A program made the translations under genes and the position numbers. Positions 6,831 through 42,225 of a DNA stretch of 64,000 nucleotides are shown piece by piece. Position 1 is the stretch's first letter; each line of letters opens with the position of its first letter. Below the pieces are notes generated by a model, which saw nothing but the letters and a program-made list of their open reading frames with translations, ran no database searches and had not been told where the DNA came from. This DNA comes from Candidatus Iainarchaeum sp. (GTDB lineage Archaea; Iainarchaeota; Iainarchaeia; Iainarchaeales; UBA10219): assembly GCA_018304425.1 (NCBI GenBank), contig JAGVWE010000004.1:187189-251188 (forward strand). Direction: 5' to 3'.

Positions 6831-7832
6831 TCACTTCACGTGCGCCTGCACCAGCTCGACGCCCGCCTCTTGGAGGATGCGTTTCGCGGTCTCCGAAACC
6901 GCGTACTCCACGTTGTACACCACTTTCGCAATGCCCGCGTTGATGGCCATCTTCGCGCACTGCAGGCAGGGGCTCATCGTAGTGTAAAGGGTGGAACCCT
7001 TCAATTCCACGCCATGGTAGGAGGCCTGCACGATGGCGTTTTCCTCGGCATGCGAGCACACGCATTCCTCGAGATTCGTTCCCGACTTGGCGAAGCTGTT
7101 GCACCGCGGGCAGCCGCCCTCGTTGCAGTTGCGCACGCCGCGCGGGGTGCCATTGTAGCCCGTGGAGATAAGCCGCTTGTCTTTCACGATGACCGCGCCT
7201 ATCTTCCGCTTCACGCAGTTGCTTCGGCTCGAGACCTCCCGCGCGATGTGGATGAAGTACTCGTCCCAGCTCGGCCGCTCGAAGTTCTGTGGTAGCCCTG
7301 CAATCGTCGCGTCGGCATTCTTGTACAAGTGTTCGAGGCTGCCGTCGTTCACGACCTCCACGTCGGCCATCCCCCGCAAAGCATCCAGTTGCTGTGCGCT
7401 CGCATCCGCATTCCGTGCCTCCCGTTCCTCGGCTTTCCTGAACTCGGCCAGCGTCTTCGAGTCCCCGGTCCGCTTGCGGTCCAGCGCGCGCTTGAACCGC
7501 ACTTCGGTCGGCGCCTCAATCCACAGCAAGTGGAAGTTGCCCGCCGCCTTCAAGGCCGAAACCTCGGCCGGGTTGCGGATGCTGTCAATCACCCAGTTCG
7601 AGTCCTTCTTGAGGCGCGGCAGGATGCGTTCCGCGAGCACGGCCGGGCCGAATTTCTCGCGCAGTTCGTTGCCCAAGCCAATCATGGCATCGCGGCTCTC
7701 CGACTGGCCGCGGGCCTTCAACTCGTCGCGGATGACGTCGGAAAGCGAGGCATAGCCGAAGCTCTTGGCCTTCAAGTGCTCGGCCACCGTGCCCTTCCCC
7801 GCGCAATTCCTGCCCGTTAAACCGATGAGCAT
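6831..7832 (-). CDS. P-loop nucleotide kinase-like domain fused to dCMP deaminase
   Basis: N-terminal GLTGRNCAGKGT; C-terminal RPSWDEYF, HAEENAI, SPCLQC. Confidence 0.9.
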   Translation of the reverse strand: MLIGLTGRNCAGKGTVAEHLKAKSFGYASLSDVIRDELKARGQSESRDAMIGLGNELREKFGPAVLAERILPRLKKDSNWVIDSIRNPAEVSALKAAGNFHLLWIEAPTEVRFKRALDRKRTGDSKTLAEFRKAEEREARNADASAQQLDALRGMADVEVVNDGSLEHLYKNADATIAGLPQNFERPSWDEYFIHIAREVSSRSNCVKRKIGAVIVKDKRLISTGYNGTPRGVRNCNEGGCPRCNSFAKSGTNLEECVCSHAEENAIVQASYHGVELKGSTLYTTMSPCLQCAKMAINAGIAKVVYNVEYAVSETAKRILQEAGVELVQAHVK

Positions 7833-7904
7833 CGTATCCACCTATTTCCGCCCCAAGCAGTTTTAAAGCCAATCCATTCCTTGCCATCAAGCCGAGGGGC
7901 AACC

Positions 7905-8077
7905 TTTAAATTCTCGTCGGTTGTAAGTTAACTGTATGCACGCGCCAAGAAGGGATTTACTTTGGCACCCGTTCCACTGATTTAACCAGCGTGCGCACTG
8001 GCAAGGCCAGTTTTTCCCCCGGCTTTTTCAAAAAGGCTGCTAACTTTAGAAGGAATCTACTTTGGCTCCGGCCTTGA
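7905..8077 (+). promoter_or_regulatory. trp promoter/leader: TATA box, leaderless uORF1 (7936-7980, MHAPRRDLLWHPFH), two CTT-TGG putative +1 shift sites, hairpin/T-tract module
   Basis: TTTAAATT at 7905-7912; AGA AGG GAT TTA CTT TGG at 7948-7965; AGA AGG AAT CTA CTT TGG at 8048-8065. Confidence 0.8.
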
Positions 8078-9119
8078 ATCGCCTTTAAAGTCAGCCCTCA
8101 GCCAAGCCATTGACGGAAAGCTCTCCCCCACCGCCCTCGGAGAAGGCCTCCGCCAAATCCTCTCCGGCCAGGCCACGGACGCGCAAACCGCTTGCCTGCT
8201 CACCTGCCTCCGCCTGCAAGGCCTCGAAGCCCCCCAGCTGGTGGCAGCGGTCTTGGCCCTCCAGGAATTCATGCACGCCATCCACCCCAACGGCGACCAG
8301 CCCCTCTTGGACATCGTGGGCACGGGCGGCGACCAAGCCGGCACCTTCAACGTCTCCACGGCCTCGATGTTCGCCGCCGCAGGCGCGGGTTGCCGGGTCG
8401 CGAAACACGGCAACCGGGGTTTCACTTCCAAGACGGGCGCAGCCGACGTCCTCGAAAAACTCGGCGTCAACATCGGGCTCTCGCCAGCCGCCAGCGCGCG
8501 GTTATTGGAAGAAACCGGAGCCTGTTTCCTGTTTGCGCCCACTTTCCACCCCGCCCTGGCTTATGTAGCAGGCGTGCGGCGGGAGCTGGGCTTCCGCACG
8601 CTCTTCAACCTCCTGGGGCCCCTTGCCAACCCAGCCAACGCTTCCACGCGGCTCGTTGGCGCCAATTCCCCGGAGAACGCGCGCGTGCTCGCGAAAGCCC
8701 TGCAACGCCTGGGCCTCGCACACTGCCTCGTCGTCCACGGCTCCCAGGGCACGGCCTCCCGCGCTCCCGGCCTCGACGAGCTCTCCACGCTCGGCAAAAA
8801 CCTCTGCATCGAAGTCAAGGGCAAGGCCTCCAAGGAATTCTTCTTGCGGCCCGCGGAGTTCGGCTTCAAGCCCGCTGCACTCGCCGACCTGCAAGTCCAC
8901 TCCGTCGACGAAAGCGCGGCCGCCGTTCTGTCCGTCCTCCGCGGCGAAGCCGGCGCCAAGCGCGACGTCGTCCTCTTCAACGCCGGCGCGGCCATCCACG
9001 TCAACGGCCTCGCGGGTTCCATCGCCGAAGGCATGGCCCTTGCCCGCGGCTCCATTGACTCCGGCCAGGCCCTCGAAAAACTCGAACAACTGAAGGTGAA
9101 ATCGAATGCACTTGCTTGA
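8061..9119 (+). CDS. trpD: Anthranilate phosphoribosyltransferase; N-terminal domain lacks a canonical start codon
   Basis: DIVGTGGD..GTFNVST, AKHGNR; the N-domain ILSGQATDAQTACLLTCLRLQG lies upstream of the first in-frame GTG (8241). Confidence 0.93.
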   Translation, partial: FGSGLESPLKSALSQAIDGKLSPTALGEGLRQILSGQATDAQTACLLTCLRLQGLEAPQLVAAVLALQEFMHAIHPNGDQPLLDIVGTGGDQAGTFNVSTASMFAAAGAGCRVAKHGNRGFTSKTGAADVLEKLGVNIGLSPAASARLLEETGACFLFAPTFHPALAYVAGVRRELGFRTLFNLLGPLANPANASTRLVGANSPENARVLAKALQRLGLAHCLVVHGSQGTASRAPGLDELSTLGKNLCIEVKGKASKEFFLRPAEFGFKPAALADLQVHSVDESAAAVLSVLRGEAGAKRDVVLFNAGAAIHVNGLAGSIAEGMALARGSIDSGQALEKLEQLKVKSNALA

Positions 9120-9891
9120 CGAAATCCTCGCCACCAAGGAACTCGAAGTCAAGGCCATGAAGAAGGCGGCCTTCCGCGAGCTCCCGCTCCCACGGGGAAC
9201 CTTCCGCTTGCAGGAAGCCCTCGCCCGCCGCGGGAGGCTGGGCCTGGTCGCGGAGTTCAAGCGTCGCAGCCCGGCCGCAGGGGGCCCGACCACCGAAGCA
9301 CCCGATTTACCGTCAGCCATGCAAGCCTATGCCCAGTGCGCGGACGCGGTTTCCGTGCTCGTCGACCAGCCGTTTTTCGGCGCGCAACCGGATGACCTCG
9401 AGCAAGCCGTGCAACGCACGCCCCTGCCCGTGCTCGCAAAAGACTTCGTCCTCGCCAAGCCCCAACTGGATGCCTTCCACTTCCGGGGAGCGAGCGCCAC
9501 CCTGCTCATCGGGAGCATCCTCGGCAAACGCCATTTACAGGGCTTATACGCCTATTCCGTGGAACTCGGCCTGGATGCCCTGGTCGAAGTCCACTCCGCC
9601 GAAGAACTCGGCGTGGCCCTGGACCTGAACGCCCAACTCATCGGCGTCAACAACCGCGACCTGCGCTCGTTCAAGGTGGACCTGGCCACCACCCGGCGCG
9701 TGCTTGACTCGGCTTCCCCCAACGACTTGCGCGGTAAAATCATCGTCTCCGAGTCCGGCTATTCCTCGCTCGATGACCTCCACCGCGCCTACGCGGACGA
9801 GCGCGTGAACGCGGTCCTGGTCGGCACCTCGCTGATGGAGAACCCCAAGCTCTGCTTTGCGTTCCGCAGGCACTTCGGAGGAAAAACATGA
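9106..9891 (+). CDS. trpC: Indole-3-glycerol phosphate synthase
   Basis: [33 protein letters not shown]. Confidence 0.95.
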
Positions 9892-11069
9892 AAGCGAAAG
9901 GATACTTCGGCGAGTTCGGCGGTTCGTTTGTCGCGGAAACCCTCCTGCAGCCCCTCAGGGAACTTGGGCAGGCCTTCGAGTCGGCAAAGCGCTCGAAGCC
10001 CTTCCAGCGCGAACTCGATTCCCTGCTCCGCGACTATGCAGGCAGACCCACCGCGTTGACCTACTGCTCAACCCTCTCGCGCCGGCTCGGCTTCAAGGTC
10101 TACCTCAAACGCGAAGACCTGCTGCACACGGGGGCACACAAGCTCAACAACGCGTTGGGCCAGGCGCTCCTCGCGCGGACCATGAAAAAAAAGCGGCTCA
10201 TCGCCGAAACCGGGGCCGGCCAACACGGAGTGGCGACGGCAGTCGCCGCCGCGCGGCTCGGCTTGAAGGCAGAGGTCTACATGGGCACGGTCGACATGGA
10301 GCGCCAAAAACCGAACGTGCAACGCATGCGCCTCTGCGGCGCGGAAGTGAGGCCCGTGCCCTCCGGCTCGAAAACCCTCAAAGACGCCATTAACGAGGCT
10401 TTACGCGATTGGTCTGCCTCGTTCGAGGACACCCATTACCTGCTTGGCTCGGTGCTGGGCCCGCACCCCTTCCCCTCGATGGTCGCACATTTCCAGTCCG
10501 TCATCGGGCGCGAAGCCCGTAGGCAATTGCTCAAAACCGAGGGCAGGCTGCCCGACCAGGTCATTGCCTGCGTGGGCGGAGGCAGCAACTCCATCGGGGT
10601 CTTCCAGGCGTTCCTCGGCGAGCCATCGGTGAAGTTGACGGGAGTGGAGGCCGGCGGCCACGGAATCCGGTCCGGCCTGCACGCGGCCCGGTTTGCGGGA
10701 ACGCCCGATGCAGGGGTTGGAGTCGTGCACGGCACGCGCACCTTCGTCTTGCAGGACGCCTTTGGCCAGATCAAGAACACGCACTCGGTTTCCGCGGGCC
10801 TCGACTACCCCGCGGTGGGGCCCATGCATGCGCGGCTCCGCGCCGATGGCCGCGTGGAATACGTCTCGGCCACGGACCCGGAAGCCCTGAAGGCGTTCAC
10901 GTTGTTGTCGGAAGCCGAGGGAATCATTCCCGCCCTTGAAAGCGCGCACGCCCTCGCCCACCTCTCCAGGCTCAAGGGCAAGCTGAAACGGGACGCGATT
11001 GTTTTGGTCAACCTCTCGGGGCGCGGCGACAAGGACCTGGACACGGCCTGCAAGGAGTTGAACCTATGA
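9888..11069 (+). CDS. trpB: Tryptophan synthase beta chain
   Basis: [40 protein letters not shown]. Confidence 0.98.
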
Positions 11070-11878
11070 CCCCGGCTTCCATCGGGCAAACCCTTGCACG
11101 CCTCCGCGCGGAAAAAAAGCGTGCCTTCCTGCCCTTCCTGGTAGCAGGGCATCCCTCGTACGAGGAGTCCATGCGGTTGGCGCTGGCGGTCGCCGACCAC
11201 GCCGATGTCCTGGAACTCGGCCTGCCCTTTTCCGACCCCATCGCGGACGGTAAAACCATCCAAAAAGCCAGTTCCCTGGCCATAAAGCGGGGGATGGACA
11301 CGGAAACCTATTTCGGTTTCGTCTCCGAATTCACCCGGAAAACCAGGGGCCAGGTTCCCGTCCTCTGCATGACCTACTACAACCTCGTCCACCGGCTCGG
11401 CGTGCACGCCTTCACCGGGCGCGCGGCGGCTTCGGGCGTGAGCGGCTTGATAGTGGTGGACCTGCCCTTGGAGGAGTCGACCGCGCTGCAACGCGCGTGC
11501 GCGTTGAACGGCCTCGACCTGGTGCTGCTGGTCTCGCCCTCGACTCCCCCCGCGCGCGCCAGGAAAATAGCGGAAGCCTCGCGGGGCTTTGTCTACCTGG
11601 TTTCCTCGGTGGGAGTCACGGGCGCCAAGAAAAAGGTTTCCAGGCAAGCCCTTCGACTCATCCGCCGCGTGAAAAAAACCTGCAAGGGAAAACCCCTGTG
11701 CGTGGGCTTCGGCGTGAGCAACGCCGGGCAAGCGGCAACGCTTGCGCGCGCTGGCGCGGACGGCGTCATCGTGGGCTCGGCCCTGATTGACAAGGTAGGG
11801 GAGAAAAACTTTTCCGCGTCGCTGGCGCGCGTGCGCGCCCTCGCCGCATCCATCTCGGGAGGCTTGAAACATGTTTGA
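11066..11878 (+). CDS. trpA: Tryptophan synthase alpha chain
   Basis: [39 protein letters not shown]. Confidence 0.97.
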
Positions 11879-13472
11879 GGATTCGCTGGCGGTCCTGCGG
11901 CAGGCCAAGCCCGGTTCCCTGGTGCCCTTCGTGCACACCGTGGACCGCGTGCTGGACGTGCCCGACTATTTTTCGAAGCTCTCCGACTTTGGGAGAAAAC
12001 CCGGCAGCGTCTTGTTCGAGTCCGCGGAAGTGGTTTCAGGGTACGGCGAGCACAGCCTCGGGTTCGCCGAGCCCATCCTCCGGGCTTCCTTCGCCGACCC
12101 CGAACTGCGGATAACCGCCTTAAGCCCCCAAGGCGAGCGGTTCCTGGCCTTCGTGGGCGAGAAACCCTTCTCGTTCGTCGAAGGACTGGAGTTCTCAGCC
12201 AAGCAAGTAAAAGGCATCATTCCCCGCAAGGCGTTCAAGGGTTCGGAGGACGAAAAGTTCGCCGAGAAAACCCCCTTGGACGCGCTCCGCGTCCTGGCCT
12301 TCACCTTCAAGCCCACACTCCAGCCCTTCAAGTGCTCGGGCGGCCTGTTCGGGCTGTTCTCCCACGACTTCATCGACCGCTTCGAGGAACTGCCGCCCCT
12401 GGCGGAAAGGCCGGAACCCGACTACGAGTTCTACTTCGCGGATTCCCTGTTCTTCGTCGAACACCAGAAGAACAAAACCCACTTCATCGCCAACGCGTTG
12501 GTTTCGGACGATGACTCCGATGAGCAGGAAGCCTATTGCCGTGCCCGCCTCGACGCCTTGCTCGACAAGTTCAGCGACGCGCGTCCCCTAACGCCGCGGT
12601 TCGCGCCCAAACAGGCAGGCCCAGGCAACGAATCCATTTCGGAGAAAAGCTTTTTCGCAGGCGTCAAGGAAATCAACGAAAACATCCTGGCCGGCAACGT
12701 CTTCCAAGCCGTCTTGAGCGCGGAAACAAGCCTCGACTTCAACGCCGTCCCCCTCGACGCCTACAAGGCGCTGCGCGCAACCAATCCCTCGCCGTACATG
12801 TTCTTTTTCGGCCTCGAGCGCGGCCAACTCCTGGCGGCCTCGCCGGAGATGGGGTACCGCGTGGACGGGAACGGCAATGGCCAGCGGTTCCTGGAAGTGC
12901 GGCCCATCGCCGGCACGCGGCCGCGCGGCCAAGACCCGGAAGAGGACGCCCGCCTCGAAGCCGAGCTCCTGACGGACTCCAAGGAACTCGCCGAGCACGC
13001 CATGCTCGTGGACCTGGCGCGCAACGACGTGGCCCGGGCTTCGGTTCCCGGCACGCGGCAGGTCTCGAAGCCGTTCACGGTCGAAAAGTACTCCCACGTC
13101 CAGCACCTCGTGTCCACCGTCCGCGGCCAGCTGCGACCGGAACTGGATGCCCTCCACTGTTACCCCGTGTGCATGAACCCGGGAACCCTGACAGGGGCCC
13201 CAAAACCAGAGGCCATGAAGCTCCTGCGCAGGCTGGAGAAAAAGGGCAGGGGCTTCTATGGGGGCCTGGCCTGTTACCTCACCCCAGCGGGCGTGCTGGA
13301 CTCGGCCATCGTCATCCGCGCCATCCGCCTCCTGGACGGCAAGGCGCGGTTGCAGGCAGGCGCCGGAATTGTTTTGGACTCGCGGCCCGGAGACGAGTTC
13401 GCGGAAGTCCAGGCAAAACTGGCGGCCTGCCGGGAAGCAGTCAAGAAATCGGGGGGCGTGCTGCTTGACTGA
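11871..13472 (+). CDS. trpE: Anthranilate synthase component I
   Basis: LFESA, NPSPYMF, PIAGTRPRG, KELAEHAMLVDLARND, GTLTGAPK. Confidence 0.96.
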   Translation: MFEDSLAVLRQAKPGSLVPFVHTVDRVLDVPDYFSKLSDFGRKPGSVLFESAEVVSGYGEHSLGFAEPILRASFADPELRITALSPQGERFLAFVGEKPFSFVEGLEFSAKQVKGIIPRKAFKGSEDEKFAEKTPLDALRVLAFTFKPTLQPFKCSGGLFGLFSHDFIDRFEELPPLAERPEPDYEFYFADSLFFVEHQKNKTHFIANALVSDDDSDEQEAYCRARLDALLDKFSDARPLTPRFAPKQAGPGNESISEKSFFAGVKEINENILAGNVFQAVLSAETSLDFNAVPLDAYKALRATNPSPYMFFFGLERGQLLAASPEMGYRVDGNGNGQRFLEVRPIAGTRPRGQDPEEDARLEAELLTDSKELAEHAMLVDLARNDVARASVPGTRQVSKPFTVEKYSHVQHLVSTVRGQLRPELDALHCYPVCMNPGTLTGAPKPEAMKLLRRLEKKGRGFYGGLACYLTPAGVLDSAIVIRAIRLLDGKARLQAGAGIVLDSRPGDEFAEVQAKLAACREAVKKSGGVLLD

Positions 13473-37572: not shown

Positions 37573-39277
37573 CCCTCCAGCGCCTCATTCACATCCCCAA
37601 AAACCTTTCCCGCTCCGTTCTTTCGGAGCAGTTCCCTCAACTCCCTTCCCTTGTCTTGGGGCGGCAGCACCCCGACCGCGGTCAAGCCCGCCCGCCGGGC
37701 CGCCTGCTGGTCGTCTGGCGTGTCCCCGAAGTAGGCCCCAGCCGCCGCAGGACCTCCTTCAACCCCCACGGGCCTGGCTTGGCCTTTCCGGGAGGCACGT
37801 CCTCCATGCACACGACCTCCGCGAACAAGTCCCGCACCCCAAAGCGTTGCAGCGCAAACTCGGCTTCCGCTCTCGGTCTGCCCGTGAACACCGCCAGCCG
37901 ATACCTTTCAGCCAACCGCTTCAACCCTTCCTTGTCCGCCAGCAGTTTCTCGTTGGCAATCAAGCCGCCAAAGTTTTTGCCGAGGTAAAACCCCTGGAAC
38001 ACTCGCTTCACCGTCGCCAGCTCCGCTTTCTTTCCCTTCCGCTTGGCCAGCTCGCGGCTCAGCTCCCAGTCGCTGTTGTAGCCGCCCTCGTTCTTCAACG
38101 CCTGGATTTCGCCGGCGCTCGCCTTCTTCCCGGTCAACCGTTCCACTGTCAACCGGATGGCCTCGCGGTAGGATTTCCGCACGTCGACGAGCACTCCATC
38201 GATGTCGAAGACGAGCACGGGCTCGGCAAGTACGCCCTTCAGTTCGCGCACGAAGCGTTTCATCTGCTTCCGCGTGCCAATCGTCACCCGACAGCAGCCC
38301 GCCAACAACGGGTAACCGGAGCGGTCGCGCACCAGCACCCCGCGCTCGCGCAGCTTCCGCACCACGAACTTCACCTGCGACCCCAGCCGGAGGATGAAGG
38401 CGTTGGCTTTGCCGAACCGCGCTTCCACACCCAACCGTTTCAGGGCCTTCCGCAGCCAGGCCCGGCTCTTCCCCACTTCCCGGACATAGGCCCGCATGTA
38501 GGCCAGGTCCCCCAAAGCCGCCAGCCCAGCCCGCAAACCGGCTCCGCTGACCGGATACGGCCTTGCAGCGGCCGCCAGCCTTTCGATGACGGGCGCCTGT
38601 GCCAAGGCATAGCCCATGCGCAGCCCCGCCAAGCCGAAGGCCTTGGACAGCGTGCGCAGCACCAGGAGGTTGCCATATTTCCTGAGCATGGGGACCAGGG
38701 TCTCCCCGCCGAACTCGATGTAGGCCTCATCCACCAGCACCAACGCGTTCGGCGCGCGGCGCAGCAGCCGTTCAACCTGCTTGCGCGTGACCGTGGTTCC
38801 CGTCGGGTTGTTGGGCGAGCACACCACGATTGCGGCCGTCCGCGCGTTCACCGCCCCGAGCACGCGCTTGAGCGGGAAAGAAAACCCTGCGTCGTCGTCC
38901 AACAACACTTCCCGCACTTTCAATCCCGCCAGCTTCGCGTACAACTCGAACGGTGAGTACGTCGGAACCGGGAGCACGACTTCGCCGCGCGGCCTCCGGA
39001 TGGCGTCGAAAATCTTGTCGATGGCCTCGTCCGAGCCGTTGAACAGCAGGACGTTCTCCGGCCGCACCTTGCAGTAGGCCGCCACCTTCTCCGCCAGCCG
39101 CCGGCTCTCCGGATAAGCGGCCACCACTTCAGCCGTCAGGCCCCGCAACGCCTTCACCACCTTCGGGCTCGGCCCCACCGTGTTCTCACCGAAGTCCAGT
39201 CGCAGCTTGCCCAGCCTCCCGGCTATGGGCGGAACGTACTTTTCCGCTTCCATGACCTCTCCTCGCATTCCCATCAT
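37563..39277 (-). CDS. hisC: Histidinol-phosphate aminotransferase fused to a HAD phosphatase; frame break near 37738
   Basis: NGSDE, SPNNPTG, VDEAY, RTLSKAFGLAGLR; HAD motif FDIDGVLVDV; AYFGDTPDD continues in another frame to 37563. Confidence 0.88.
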
Positions 39278-40566
39278 TTCCGTTTCACCTCGAACCGTTT
39301 CTCCACCGACTTCCTGTGCGCGTCCAGCCCCTCTTCCCGGGCCAGGCACGCGACGGCCGGCCGCAAGGCCTCCAAACCCCTGCGCGACAGCCTTTCCACG
39401 TTCTGGAACCGCATGAACTCAAGCACGCTCAACCCGGACGAGAACCGGGCCGCGCGCCCGGTCGGCAAAACGTGGTTGGTGCCGCTCGCATAGTCTCCGG
39501 CCGCCTTGGGACTCCAAGGCCCCAGGAAAACCGTGCCCGCGTTGACGAGCCCATCCACAAACCGTTGGCCGAAGCCCCAGACCTCGGCGTGCTCGGCCGC
39601 GAAGTCGTTGGCGAACCGCAGGACCTGTGCCTCGTTTTTTGCGAGGACAATCAGCCCGTTTCGTTTCAGCGACTGCCGTGCAACTTGGCCGGTCGCCAGT
39701 TCCCCCAACTGCTGCTTTAACTCCTTTTCCACTTGCCGCGCCAGCTTCCGCGAAGTCGTGACCAGCACGCTGCGCGCGTTGGGCTCGTGCTCGGCGGAAG
39801 CCAAGAGGTCGGCGGCCATCCATTCCGGGTTCCCGCTTTTCGCCAGCACCAGCAGTTCGGTGGGCCCGGCCAGCAAGTCGATGCCGACCTCGCCGTAGAC
39901 GAGCCGCTTGGCCGCCGTGACATACGCGTTTCCCGGCCCGAAAACCTTGTCCACGCGTGGAATGCTTTCCGTGCCGTACGCCATCGCGGCAATGGCTTGC
40001 GCGCCCCCAACCTTGAAGATGCGGTCGGCTCCCGCCAGCAGGCAAGCAGCCACGATCAAGGGATTCGCTTTCCCGTCCTTCCGCGGCGGCGTGCACACGA
40101 TTTTCTCGCGCACGCCCGCCACCTGCGCGGGCACCAGGTTCATCAGCGCGGTCGATGGCAGCGGATATCGCCCGGCAGGGACATAGACCCCGACGCGCTC
40201 GATGGGCCGCACGGTCTGCCCCGCGTATATGCCGTTACCGAAGCCTTTTGCCCAGCTTTTAGGCAGGGCCGCCCGCTGGAAATCCGCGAGGTTCTTCGTC
40301 GCGCACTTCAACGCGCTCCGCTGTTCCTTTGTCAGGCCGCGCAGGGCCGCGCGTTTCTCGGCCGCGCCCACTTCCAGTTCGTTTGCCGATAGCGTGACCC
40401 GGTCGAACCGCCGCGTGAATTCGCGCAGGGCAGCGTCGCCGCGCCTGCGCACGGCCTCGAGTATTTCCCGTGCCGCTGGCTCCGCTGCGCGGTTCGCTTC
40501 CGCTTTCGGTTTCACCAACCGTTCATAGTCCGTTCGCGAAACCCCGGCCAACTCGACCCGGGTGAA
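39274..40566 (-). CDS. hisD: Histidinol dehydrogenase; probably initiated at ATG 40603 via a +1 shift, alternative TTG start 40551
   Basis: GVYVP.G, GGAQAIAAMAYGT, GPGN.YV, AGPTE, AEH, GDY..GTNHVLPT. Confidence 0.95.
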   Translation of the reverse strand, partial: FTRVELAGVSRTDYERLVKPKAEANRAAEPAAREILEAVRRRGDAALREFTRRFDRVTLSANELEVGAAEKRAALRGLTKEQRSALKCATKNLADFQRAALPKSWAKGFGNGIYAGQTVRPIERVGVYVPAGRYPLPSTALMNLVPAQVAGVREKIVCTPPRKDGKANPLIVAACLLAGADRIFKVGGAQAIAAMAYGTESIPRVDKVFGPGNAYVTAAKRLVYGEVGIDLLAGPTELLVLAKSGNPEWMAADLLASAEHEPNARSVLVTTSRKLARQVEKELKQQLGELATGQVARQSLKRNGLIVLAKNEAQVLRFANDFAAEHAEVWGFGQRFVDGLVNAGTVFLGPWSPKAAGDYASGTNHVLPTGRAARFSSGLSVLEFMRFQNVERLSRRGLEALRPAVACLAREEGLDAHRKSVEKRFEVKRK

Positions 40567-40978
40567 CTAAACCCCTTCTGTCAGTCTTGCGACTAGTCGT
40601 CATAACCCAACCCACCTCCAAGAGAAGTTGTTGGGCTACCCCCAATGATGGAGTAACCCGTGGTGAACTAACTCAACCCGTTCGGTTGAAGAAAAGAAAG
40701 GGCCGGTGCGGGGAATTGAACCCCGTTCAGAAGGTCCACAGCCTTCTATCCTAACCGATAGACCACACCAGCCATTACGCCTTTTTACAAAAGGTGTGCG
40801 AAAACGTCCCATGCGCGGCATGGGACTGCCCTCAGTATTGGCTTCGCTAAAAGAGGGACAAGCGCTGAGAATAGTTTCATAGCTAGCCAAGTCAAGTAGG
40901 GCGTTATCGCCGGCTATGAAGTAAATTCCTTCTCATAGGTTAATCGCTCACATATCTTCCGTCTGCGGAGTTTAAATA
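40523..40978 (-). promoter_or_regulatory. his leader: TATA box, three uORFs with His-codon putative +1 shift sites, RBS-sequestering hairpin, embedded tRNA-His
   Basis: TATTTAAA 40978-40971; uORF 40936-40904 MRRNLLHSRR; frame ending VHHGLLHHWG* at 40636; uORF 40603-40523 with AGA AGG GGT TTA GTT CAC. Confidence 0.78.
40701..40773 (-). tRNA. tRNA-His(GTG) with encoded G-1
   Basis: G-GCTGGTG...CACCGGC-C; GAAGG-CT-GTG-GA-CCTTC. Confidence 0.95.
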
Positions 40979-41661: not shown

Positions 41662-41731
41662 AGCCTTTTTACAAAAGGCTGGCGAAAACGTCCGAATGCA
41701 ACCCCTTCTCGCTTCGCTCGAAGGGGTGGAA

Positions 41732-41815
41732 TGCACGGGGCAGGATTCGAACCTGCGAAGGCACTAAGCCACTGGCCCCTGAAGCCAGCACGTTTGGCCG
41801 CTTCGTTACCCGTGC
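41732..41815 (-). tRNA. tRNA-Leu(CAG)
   Basis: CTGGC-TT-CAG-GG-GCCAG, long variable arm, GGTTCGAATCC. Confidence 0.95.
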
Positions 41816-42056
41816 AGCTGACGAAGCGTCAGCTGGCACCGCATACGTCGTCCCATCTCGCTGCTGCTCGATGGGACATAAATATGCCGTGCTTTGCCTG
41901 CTTCAAACCTAAGAGGCTGGGAAAGGGTTTTTATGGCTTGCCATTGAAGAAAGGCAGTGGCATACGTGGTATGCCACCTTTTCCCAGGGCTTCGTTGTCC
42001 ACTTCGTGGACGACGCCACCAAAAGCGAAGCTTTTGATGGTTGTAAAAAGCCCTAG

Positions 42057-42130
42057 CGACCCCGTTGGGATTTGAACCCAAGCCTAGAGCTCCGGAGGCT
42101 CTTATGCAATCCAGACTACACTACGGGGCC
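42057..42130 (-). tRNA. tRNA-Arg(CCG)
   Basis: AGAGC-CT-CCG-GA-GCTCT. Confidence 0.93.
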
Positions 42131-42151
42131 AACCCCTTTTGCCGGGGCAAG

Positions 42152-42225
42152 CGCACCCACAGGGATTTGAACCCTGGCCGGCAGCTCCGCAAGCTGCTAT
42201 GCTATCCTGGCTACACTATGGGTGC
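42152..42225 (-). tRNA. tRNA-Arg(GCG)
   Basis: GCAGC-TT-GCG-GA-GCTGC. Confidence 0.93.

Follow-up and report, generated by a model that had tools for sequence, protein, structure and literature searches.

How can a gene be translated when its reading frame lacks a start codon? The question is raised by trpD of Candidatus Iainarchaeum sp., in a stretch of 64,000 nucleotides (nt) of contig JAGVWE010000004.1 (assembly GCA_018304425.1), called the window below; positions refer to it unless another contig is named. The original prediction, made from the letters of this stretch alone, held that trpD is reached from a leaderless upstream open reading frame (ORF) through two successive +1 shifts at CTT-TGG. 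In this work, we found that both sites belong to copies of a 15-nt cassette that recurs in this genome and its relatives, and that the codon following the cassette, hereafter the sensor codon, tracks the amino acid served by the downstream genes. We propose, at a probability of about 0.7, that the element is a modular translated sensor of charged tRNA that acts by programmed +1 frameshifting and is present in two copies in the trp leader.

The source genome, that of an uncultured archaeon, comprises 7 contigs (1.48 Mb, 59% G+C, 92.6% complete), and its 16S rRNA scores 1327 bits with the archaeal model vs 1023 with the bacterial one. Species genomes of the phylum number 215, of which one order accounts for 196; all are small (0.3–1.5 Mb).

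The trp leader and a trpD gene without a start codon

The region upstream of and including the trp operon is organised as follows.

7905–7910, + strand: TATA-like box TTTAAA, beginning 31 nt before ATG 7936
7936–7980, + strand: leaderless leader ORF 1, MHAPRRDLLWHPFH and stop, with ATG 7936 and TGA 7978–7980; its architecture is shared with the M(A)RRDLLW... leaders of relatives
7948–7962, + strand: cassette t1, AGAAGGGATTTACTT, read RRDLL; CTT 7960–7962 is the proposed slip codon of the ribosomal peptidyl (P) site
7963–7965, + strand: sensor codon 1, TGG (Trp); a codon-gene match is seen in all sensor classes
7964–8077, + strand: +1 relay ORF of 37 codons plus stop, GTRSTD...RRNLLWLRP, entered by skipping T7963
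7997–8015, + strand: small hairpin ACUGGC-AAG-GCCAGU followed by five T (T5, 8011–8015), inside the relay ORF, the T5 lying 48 nt after sensor 1; candidate archaeal terminator
8024–8028, + strand: second T5 run, 61 nt after sensor 1
8048–8062, + strand: cassette t2, AGAAGGAATCTACTT, read RRNLL, in the +1 frame of t1; CTT at 8060–8062
8063–8065, + strand: sensor codon 2, TGG (Trp); the unshifted frame ends at TGA 8075–8077
8064–9119, + strand: trpD, anthranilate phosphoribosyltransferase, in the +1 frame of t2 (skip of T8063), beginning GSGLESPLKSALSQ...
9106–13472, + strand: trpC (9106–9891), trpB (9888–11069), trpA (11066–11878) and trpE (11871–13472), each overlapping the end of the preceding gene

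The trpD frame is closed by TAA 7983–7985, open from 7986, and contains no ATG, GTG or TTG until GTG 8241. Its product matches TIGR01245 with 346 bits (cut-off 199) and carries both domain matches of the family, PF02885 (N-domain) at residues 18–69 and PF00591 (catalytic) at residues 79–337, numbering from 8064. Because GTG 8241 is residue 60 in this numbering and lies within PF02885, initiation at this only canonical start would delete that domain. In all 12 of the relatives of the order first examined, an ATG is found 0–8 codons before the equivalent first helix of TrpD. The claim that trpD has no usable start therefore stands. Gene callers shorten the protein to 288 aa here, and P0003, the only protein with 71% identity in a large collection, is called at 310 aa and is N-terminally short as well. 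Our scans of genome and metagenome contigs returned only TrpDs of at most 44% identity, P0003 and those at 60% being protein records.

The two cassettes share 13 of 15 bases, and about 20 of 24 with their flanks, as judged by eye. Their spacing of 100 nt means that a +1 shift at t1 leads into the frame of t2; a further +1 shift, at t2, leads into that of trpD. As for the start of leader ORF 1, a scan of 736 upstream regions of the genome, in which overlapping hexamers were counted separately, showed that the starts of TATA-like hexamers peak at -31 to -28 before first ATGs (48, 76, 76 and 39 counts vs about 3–17 elsewhere). Leaderless mRNAs predominate in this genome, with a smaller second class of starts preceded by GGAGG or GGTG at -14 to -9. 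The box upstream of ATG 7936 falls within the peak, in agreement with the leaderless start originally assigned to this ATG.

Contigs of four sequencing runs from four studies agree over the trp leader and trpD region, with no other letters and no gaps. Runs X1 and X3 cover 7600–8600, both being possibly the source of the assembly, run X6 covers 7632–7992 and 7995–8473, and run X9 covers 7984–8136. This gap-free agreement excludes an assembly error at the 5' region of trpD. We also discarded TTG 8062 as a trpD start combined with a -1 error, since the TTG belongs to the cassette and there is no indel in the reads. The layout around trpD goes beyond chance, given the bases shared by the two sites and the recurrence of the cassette in the genome and in relatives.

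Other copies of the cassette in the genome

Six cassettes matching the exact pattern are present in this genome, at three loci (trp, his and cys-linked), together with one variant (ile). The sensor codons of the six are TGG and TGG (trp), CAT and CAC (his), and TGC and TGT (beside the cysteinyl-tRNA synthetase gene, CysRS), all in frame. The codon after every one of the genome's cassettes is a codon for the amino acid served by the adjoining genes. The his locus, which lies in the window, reads as follows.

40971–40976, - strand: TTTAAA of his leader ORF 1, at -40
40904–40936, - strand: his leader ORF 1, MRRNLLHSRR and stop (ATG AGA AGG AAT TTA CTT CAT), with cassette h1 at 40919–40933 and sensor CAT at 40916–40918
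40636–40917, - strand: +1 relay ORF of h1, 93 codons, passing through tRNA-His
40700–40772, - strand: tRNA-His (GTG), cognate to the sensor; the same arrangement (within 400 nt) occurs in 9 his leaders of relatives
40523–40603, - strand: his leader ORF 2, MTTSRKTDRRGLVH... to a stop (MTTSRKTD-RRGLV-H...), with GGAGGTG 40613–40619 upstream
40565–40579, - strand: cassette h2, AGAAGGGGTTTAGTT, with sensor CAC at 40562–40564
39274–40563, - strand: hisD in the +1 frame of h2 (PF00815, 497 bits), with an in-frame TTG at 40551

At the cys-linked locus, on contig C4, a leaderless ATG (TTTTAA at -30) opens the ORF MQESRNASLSFPRRDLLCLSH and stop, in which the cassette is followed by TGC. A second cassette, 28 nt further and in the +1 frame of the first, is followed by TGT. 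The +1 frame of this second cassette is a small, winged-helix-like ORF resembling MarR (MarR_2, E = 0.0017, below the cut-off), divergent from CysRS (PF01406). On contig C5, a leaderless ORF (TTAAAA at -31) carries the variant cassette AGA AGG GAT CTA GAA ATA, with GAA as P-site codon and ATA as sensor, and precedes tRNA-Ile(TAT). The +1 frame runs for 80 codons through this tRNA, and its TGA overlaps the ATG of the isoleucyl-tRNA synthetase gene (IleRS, 872 bits) as ATGA. The same Ile leader ORF (L108:480-505) contains a second ATA codon and a shortened cassette-like sequence, AGAAGGGGCCTT, followed by CGG.

The remaining cassette-like matches in the genome are chance matches inside genes, apart from one short ORF on contig C7 (75680–75745, + strand). 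It reads ATG GAT TTA CTT ACA (MDLLT; MDLLTPILLLFWGRRVGLRVS and stop), follows a TATA-like box located at about -21, has a +1 frame that is short, and might represent a degenerate cassette of a Thr type.

Sensor codons match the downstream genes across the order

The pattern AGAAGGRRTYTASTT was found in 47 of the 196 genomes of the order, with 64 matches vs 21 for the reversed control, and in 2 of 19 further genomes of the phylum. We inspected all 58 matches outside the source genome and kept 42 as short-ORF leaders, having an ATG no further than 12 codons upstream and a stop of the 0 frame within 20 codons past the sensor. By our own tally these leaders come from 36 genomes and 10 families, kin not being independent. 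The 16 matches set aside are the second cassettes of the serial pairs L051, L052 and L101 (second copy), three from one genus without an in-frame ATG (L087, L090 and L095), and ten in-gene or antisense matches (L053, L056, L058, L059, L060, L066, L082, L094, L099 and L106). Most relatives' leaders carry the 15-mer of t1 unchanged.

The sensor codons of the 42 leaders specify Trp in 21 cases, His in 12, Pro in 8 and Ile in 1, and the usual leader peptides are M(A)RRDLLW..., MRR(D/N)L(L/V)H... and M..RRDLLP... Together with the seven cassettes of the source genome, the leaders are 8–25 residues long, with one and sometimes two cognate codons. The sensor classes are TGG (trp genes), CAY (his genes and the histidyl-tRNA synthetase, HisRS), CCN (pro genes and the prolyl-tRNA synthetase, ProRS), ATA (tRNA-Ile-UAU and IleRS) and TGY (beside CysRS). 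The next gene encodes TrpE in 11 of 12 Trp leaders tested, HisRS in 9 of 11 His leaders tested and HisI in one more; for the Pro and Ile leaders it encodes ProC (2), ProRS (1) and, after the ATA leader, IleRS (1). Of the 42 leaders, 21 have a cognate tRNA gene in the following 400 nt (His 9, Trp 8, Pro 3, Ile-TAT 1), and in those leaders no non-cognate tRNA stands between the sensor and the cognate tRNA. The match between sensor codon and downstream genes indicates that the 0 frame is read as far as that codon. A TATA-like hexamer is present at -34 to -26 of the in-frame ATG in 20 of the 42 leaders and a Shine-Dalgarno (SD) sequence in 5; by eye, several further leaders have a TATA box at about -36 to -40. 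These observations point to a lineage-wide regulon rather than an oddity of trpD.

Some leaders share features outside the cassette. The 0-frame stop is often a TGA in the context C-TGA-TTC/TTT (TGATTT at 7978 in the window, and L068, L101, L102 and L105). The trp leaders of family f24 (L067, L070, L077, L080, L085 and kin) have a CTAGCCATC box about 25 nt past the sensor. At about +85 to +110 in these leaders, the +1 stop lies within a small hairpin (TGGCCG-TAA-GGCC or TGGCT-TTA-AGCCA), after a conserved CATGGC box and directly before tRNA-Trp.

Reading frames past the sensor codon

Past the sensor, the median open length in the 42 leaders is 5.5, 60 and 8 codons for the 0, +1 and +2 frames, respectively. 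The 0 frame closes within 2–19 codons. In all 42 leaders the +1 frame runs for 26 codons or more without a stop, vs 6 of 42 for the +2 frame, and it is longer than the +2 frame in 40 of 42. At random positions in the loci of these A+T-rich relatives, 38% reach 26 open codons.

In several cases, the +1 frame is directly the frame of a protein whose domain begins ahead of any canonical start. An Asp_Glu_race domain starts at residue 12 in L089 and L097, the first canonical start being codon 34 and codon 26, respectively, and an AA_kinase/ProB domain starts at residue 10 in L100, with the first canonical start at codon 20. Further +1 fusions of this kind involve HisG (L051), a PALP/TrpB2-like protein (L055) and TrpD of the window. 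The fusion of Trp-sensor cassettes to Asp/Glu-racemase genes (L089, L097) hints at a Trp-related role of these racemases.

Elsewhere, the +1 stop overlaps the start of the next gene, in 8 of 41 leaders, as ATGA (L054, L064, L078, L084 and L104), TGATG (L068 and L083) or TAGTG (L063). In two others, L098 and L100, the +1 stop falls on the ATG that opens a second cassette ORF, which brings the overlaps to 10 of 41. Series of cassettes, in which a copy is in the +1 frame of its predecessor, are present in L051, L052 and L101, and L098 and L100 are also double. In the his leader L061 (genome G104), the +1 relay runs for 412 codons, matches LAGLIDADG_3 (PF14528, E = 5.6e-10) and ends at tRNA-His; it looks as if a homing-endonuclease-like gene lies in frame inside the relay ORF.

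Taken together, these patterns indicate that ribosomes read the 0 frame as far as the sensor and the +1 frame beyond it. The openness of the +1 frame, the fusions, the start overlaps and the serial cassettes make a slip at the sensor the simplest link between the two. Each element of the original prediction thus gains independent support from the comparison. The two CTT-TGG sites, as copies of a conserved cassette whose sensor tracks the downstream genes, are plausible shift sites; the frames entered after CTT-T are open, as they are in the relatives; and the double cassettes found elsewhere are consistent with two Trp sensors in series in the trp leader. The multiplying kinetics also supposed for these two sensors may follow from their serial arrangement.

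Nucleotide conservation, slip codon and stimulator

A search for the peptide pattern ATG-x-R-R-[DNGS]-L-[LV]-W, irrespective of codon choice, yielded 16 matches, 15 of which are encoded by exactly AGA AGG GAT (T/C)TA CTT. The codon adjoining the cassette in those matches varies (GCT, GCC, GCA, GTT, AAA). The cassette codons are among the rarest in the source genome, AGA accounting for 4.3% of Arg codons, and TTA and CTA for 2.5% and 2.3% of Leu codons. Fixed nucleotides together with rare codons suggest a constraint on the nucleotides themselves or on particular tRNAs, and not on the peptide alone. In addition, there are variants in which the peptide is changed and the purine run is kept, namely CAAAGTGAT and AGGGGGGAT.

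In the trp leader, both slip sites are CTT-T (CUU_U in the mRNA), at 7960–7963 and 8060–8063; other cassettes have CTT-C, CTT-A, GTT-N or GAA-A. A tRNA-Leu(GAG) gene is present in the genome. The AGAAGG(GAU) stretch upstream of the slip codon resembles an SD sequence, and the duplex of variant AGGGGGGAT with the 16S rRNA tail reaches -13.1 kcal/mol. Pairing of mRNA with rRNA, the identity of the tRNAs in the exit (E) and P sites, or the nascent peptide might each act as stimulator, and we favour none of them.

Oligo-T runs downstream of the first sensor

Oligo-T stretches are the termination signal of archaeal transcription. In the relatives' leaders, runs of at least five T are enriched 30–90 nt past the sensor, with 16 and 16 per 30-nt bin vs about 3–4 in most other bins; the average in the source genome is 1.45 per kb per strand. 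Such a run starts at +36 to +80 in 25 of 42 leaders, always within the +1 ORF. Its distance to the sensor is nearly fixed, and its distance to the tRNA ranges from 11 to about 240 nt. Direct fusions (L055, L061, L086 and the second cassette of L100) have no such run there. In the trp leader, the 6-bp hairpin before T5 8011–8015 is present in the minimum-free-energy fold. The first sensor probably acts together with an oligo-T terminator at +48/+61, a location conserved among the relatives.

How could a translated sensor act on such a terminator? In a structural study (PMC11616081), binding of a coupled ribosome and of the termination factor FttA to the elongation complex is proposed to be mutually exclusive. 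Together with the T-runs inside the relay ORF, this exclusion leads us to infer that a shifted ribosome trailing the polymerase might suppress termination. Suppression of this kind would explain how a translated sensor could control tRNA genes, and it is the least secure part of our proposal.

Proposed mechanism

In the trp leader, the ribosome would start at the leaderless AUG 7936, read AGA AGG GAU UUA CUU and pause at UGG for Trp-tRNA while CUU occupies the P site. If Trp-tRNA is abundant, UGG would be decoded and translation would stop four codons on, releasing a 14-residue peptide. With no trailing ribosome, RNA polymerase would then terminate at the hairpin/T5-T5 element 48–61 nt downstream. 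When Trp-tRNA is scarce, the P-site tRNA-Leu would slip from CUU to UUU, and the +1 relay would be translated across the T-runs, keeping transcription going. A second slip at the CUU-UGG of t2 would give access to the trpD frame, and trpC, trpB, trpA and trpE might follow by translational coupling. In this arrangement, sensor 1 (7963) would gate transcription past 8011–8028 and sensor 2 (8063) the translation of the start-less trpD.

Cassettes with another sensor codon would control his, pro, ile and cys-linked genes, their tRNAs and aminoacyl-tRNA synthetases. With somewhat less assurance than for the sensor itself, we consider it fairly probable that the whole lineage, at the level of a phylum, possesses a ribosome-read regulon resembling T-boxes in function, in which the shifted ribosome serves as a moving antiterminator through oligo-T and tRNA genes and then reaches synthetase or biosynthesis genes through ATGA coupling or fusion. 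That the slip occurs, that it responds to charging, which tRNA slips and how termination is suppressed are aspects that we infer from the sequence patterns.

Points against the proposal and alternative explanations

A number of observations weigh against a frameshifting sensor coupled to termination. No T-run of five or more is present at +36 to +80 in 17 of the 42 leaders. The fold of 7936–8110 is no better than those of shuffled sequences (z = -0.44) and contains no alternative hairpins, and a consensus terminator scan gave no site under its own rule. The GUU and GAA variants of the slip codon are unable to re-pair at the first position. The duplex of the SD-like stretch with the 16S tail (...GGAUCACCUCCU) amounts to -4.0 to -7.1 kcal/mol, and 15–51% of random 15-mers from the genome pair at least as well, so that an SD-like stimulator looks weak. 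The hisD gene and the MarR-like ORF have in-frame canonical starts and do not need a frameshift. Kin are not independent, and the frame statistics are overstated to that extent. In L103 (genome G037), the twelfth Trp leader tested, MNFRRDLLW... is followed, as the next long ORF, by a xanthine/hypoxanthine phosphoribosyltransferase-like gene. In L087, L090 and L095, from three genomes of one genus, the cassette is followed by CAT CAC and lacks an in-frame ATG; a conserved stretch of about 40 nt (CAGAGTTGGATTAAATC...) lies upstream, and the +1 frame extends for only 3, 9 and 19 codons. None of the runs listed for the locus is an RNA run. Finally, two serial shifts of low efficiency would yield very little TrpD unless each is efficient.

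The sensor codon might also be read without any frameshift, in a leader peptide whose stalling controls termination or initiation, as in trpL, hisL or erm leaders, with TrpD made from the near-cognate codons ATC 8055 or CTG 8037 of its frame. We consider this unlikely. It accommodates the clear reading of the sensor as a codon, the T-run at a fixed distance from it, the available near-cognate codons, and the starts of their own that hisD and most of the relatives' main genes possess (24 of the first 30 loci used). However, it leaves unexplained why it is the +1 frame, rather than the +2 frame, that all 42 leaders keep open, why +1 stops fall on the next ATG and why domains begin ahead of canonical starts in that frame. 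The lack of alternative hairpins and the unremarkable fold of the trp leader also tell against stalling. Together with the empty terminator scan and the presence of a single 6-bp hairpin, they lend no support to a structured attenuator with mutually exclusive terminator and antiterminator hairpins. Moreover, ATC 8055 lies inside the cassette right after the purine run, without the spacing of a ribosome-binding site. An ATT or ATC arising from the +1 reading of the cassette was discarded as a start for the same lack of spacing, and because it would leave the 0-frame codon match unexplained. A frameshift of fixed rate, which sets expression ratios independently of amino-acid supply, is quite improbable. 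The Ty1 site CUU_AGG_C does act at a fixed 40%, according to a passage of a recoding review (PMC5009743), and the 15-mer is conserved at the nucleotide level. Yet a constitutive site has no need of a matching codon in the ribosomal aminoacyl (A) site, and the match is present in every class, including ATA with tRNA-Ile(TAT).

The idea that the 15-mer is a DNA operator or promoter element, for instance for the MarR-like protein, with coincidental frame relations, was the first that we considered. The direct repeats near promoters and the two copies upstream of the small winged-helix-like ORF speak for it. We abandoned it after the sensor codons and frames had been seen, and it now seems very improbable: an operator would not dictate an upstream in-frame ATG, a cognate codon, a near 0-frame stop and an open +1 frame, and the cassette is found on the coding strand only, at +12 to +112 nt from the TATA box. 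Decay of trpD or an assembly indel, either of which would make the upstream frames meaningless, is largely refuted and hardly credible. It would suit a small, 92.6%-complete assembly of an uncultured archaeon in which gene callers shorten the protein. Against it stand the agreement among four runs described above, the intact remainder of trpD and of its operon, above family cut-offs, and the recurrence of the start-less fusion design for other genes in other families. The frameshifting sensor thus remains our preferred explanation.

Relation to known systems

The closest likeness is to prfB. According to a recoding review (PMC5009743), the shift on the RF2 mRNA takes place at CUU_U, with a G:U pair forming at the first position and a stimulator 3 nt ahead of the site. 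As in prfB, a short 0-frame ORF is followed by the product in the +1 frame (TrpD, ProB, racemase or HisG), with no earlier canonical start; CUU is followed by U, a slow A-site codon would set the shift rate, and a purine-rich stretch lies just upstream. The likeness drawn originally between the trp sites and prfB, that of CUU-to-UUU re-pairing, agrees with the CUU_U site at both positions. Duplex energies do not support an SD-like stimulator of the prfB kind. Unlike in prfB, the A site contains a sense codon differing from pathway to pathway (TGG, CAY, CCN, ATA, TGY) and not UGA read by RF2, so that the sensed molecule would be a charged tRNA. The system belongs to an archaeon, its upstream stretch forms weak duplexes with the 16S tail, and its output comprises tRNA genes and, probably, read-through of transcription.

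The same part of that review gives CUU_AGG_C as the hungry-codon site of Ty1. The cassette resembles the hungry-codon sites of Gallant and those of Ty1 and ABP140 in its P-site CUU and in a limiting A-site tRNA, the latter suggested here by the codon-gene match. However, Ty1 uses a constitutively rare tRNA for a fixed Gag-Pol ratio, whereas in this system a regulon would use the hungry codon as its intended input. Starvation-induced shifting in Escherichia coli is treated there as an error and not as a used signal (PMC5009743).

Like the trpL, hisL and pheL attenuators, the elements combine a short leader ORF containing codons of the regulated amino acid, located before a biosynthetic operon, with a downstream terminator, a candidate one in this case. 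A leaderless leader ORF is also described, in part of a preprint (bioRxiv 10.1101/834739), for the mycobacterial polycysteine short ORFs that act as Cys attenuators. In contrast with bacterial attenuators, a fixed 15-nt cassette is followed by one sensor codon, without codon runs or alternative hairpins, the open +1 frame would be obligatory, and tRNA and synthetase genes are under control as well.

T-boxes are untranslated bacterial RNAs that bind tRNA directly, have a swappable specifier codon and control synthetase and biosynthesis genes by charging. The likeness to them is one of function only, that of a modular element with a swappable codon, since the ribosome would be the reader here. 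No Rfam family was found in 7000–9000, the best match (E = 0.073) being far below gathering, so that no T-box fold was detected there.

In Archaea, the programmed -1 frameshift of Saccharolobus solfataricus fucA1 is the only one reported, according to an excerpt of a 2021 review (PMC8211752). Like trpD here, fucA1 is a cellular archaeal gene expressed via a frameshift, although of the -1 type at A-AAA-AAT, in a single gene and with no known sensing role. The part of the 2016 recoding review dealing with archaea mentions only viral cases, magnesium chelatase and Sulfolobus candidates (PMC5009743). Our full-text literature search yielded no description of such a system, and neither ribosome-mediated attenuation nor amino-acid-sensing recoding was found for Archaea.

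Neighbouring genes

Downstream of hisD are a hisC-HAD fusion (PF00155 plus HAD) and hisB (PF00475). The fusion, at 37682–39349 (- strand), joins histidinol-phosphate aminotransferase to a HAD hydrolase domain that is possibly the missing histidinol-phosphatase. Upstream of the his leader region, at 41731–42225 (- strand), is a cluster of tRNA genes for Leu(CAG), Arg(CCG) and Arg(GCG). Divergent from the trp leader, a 336-aa ORF at 6831–7841 (- strand) combines a kinase-like N-terminus with a dCMP/CMP-deaminase-like C-terminus, with sub-threshold matches to anti-phage dCTP deaminase (142 bits vs a cut-off of 400) and to ComEB.

Implications

The proposed frameshifting sensor would account for a class of start-less and truncated gene calls in this lineage, such as those of trpD at 288 aa here and at 310 aa in the relative with 71% identity. 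With its 18 nt it might serve as a programmable amino-acid sensor for engineering, and it would open a direct way to study how archaea couple transcription to translation and terminate it. If our proposal is true, it would be the first case in which ribosomes sense amino acids in Archaea. It would likewise be the first +1 frameshift with a regulatory role in a cellular gene of this domain, and the first in which nature employs hungry-codon frameshifting as a signal. The proposal would also answer the long-standing question of how archaea that have neither T-boxes nor leader attenuators match the expression of their tRNA, synthetase and biosynthesis genes to amino-acid supply.

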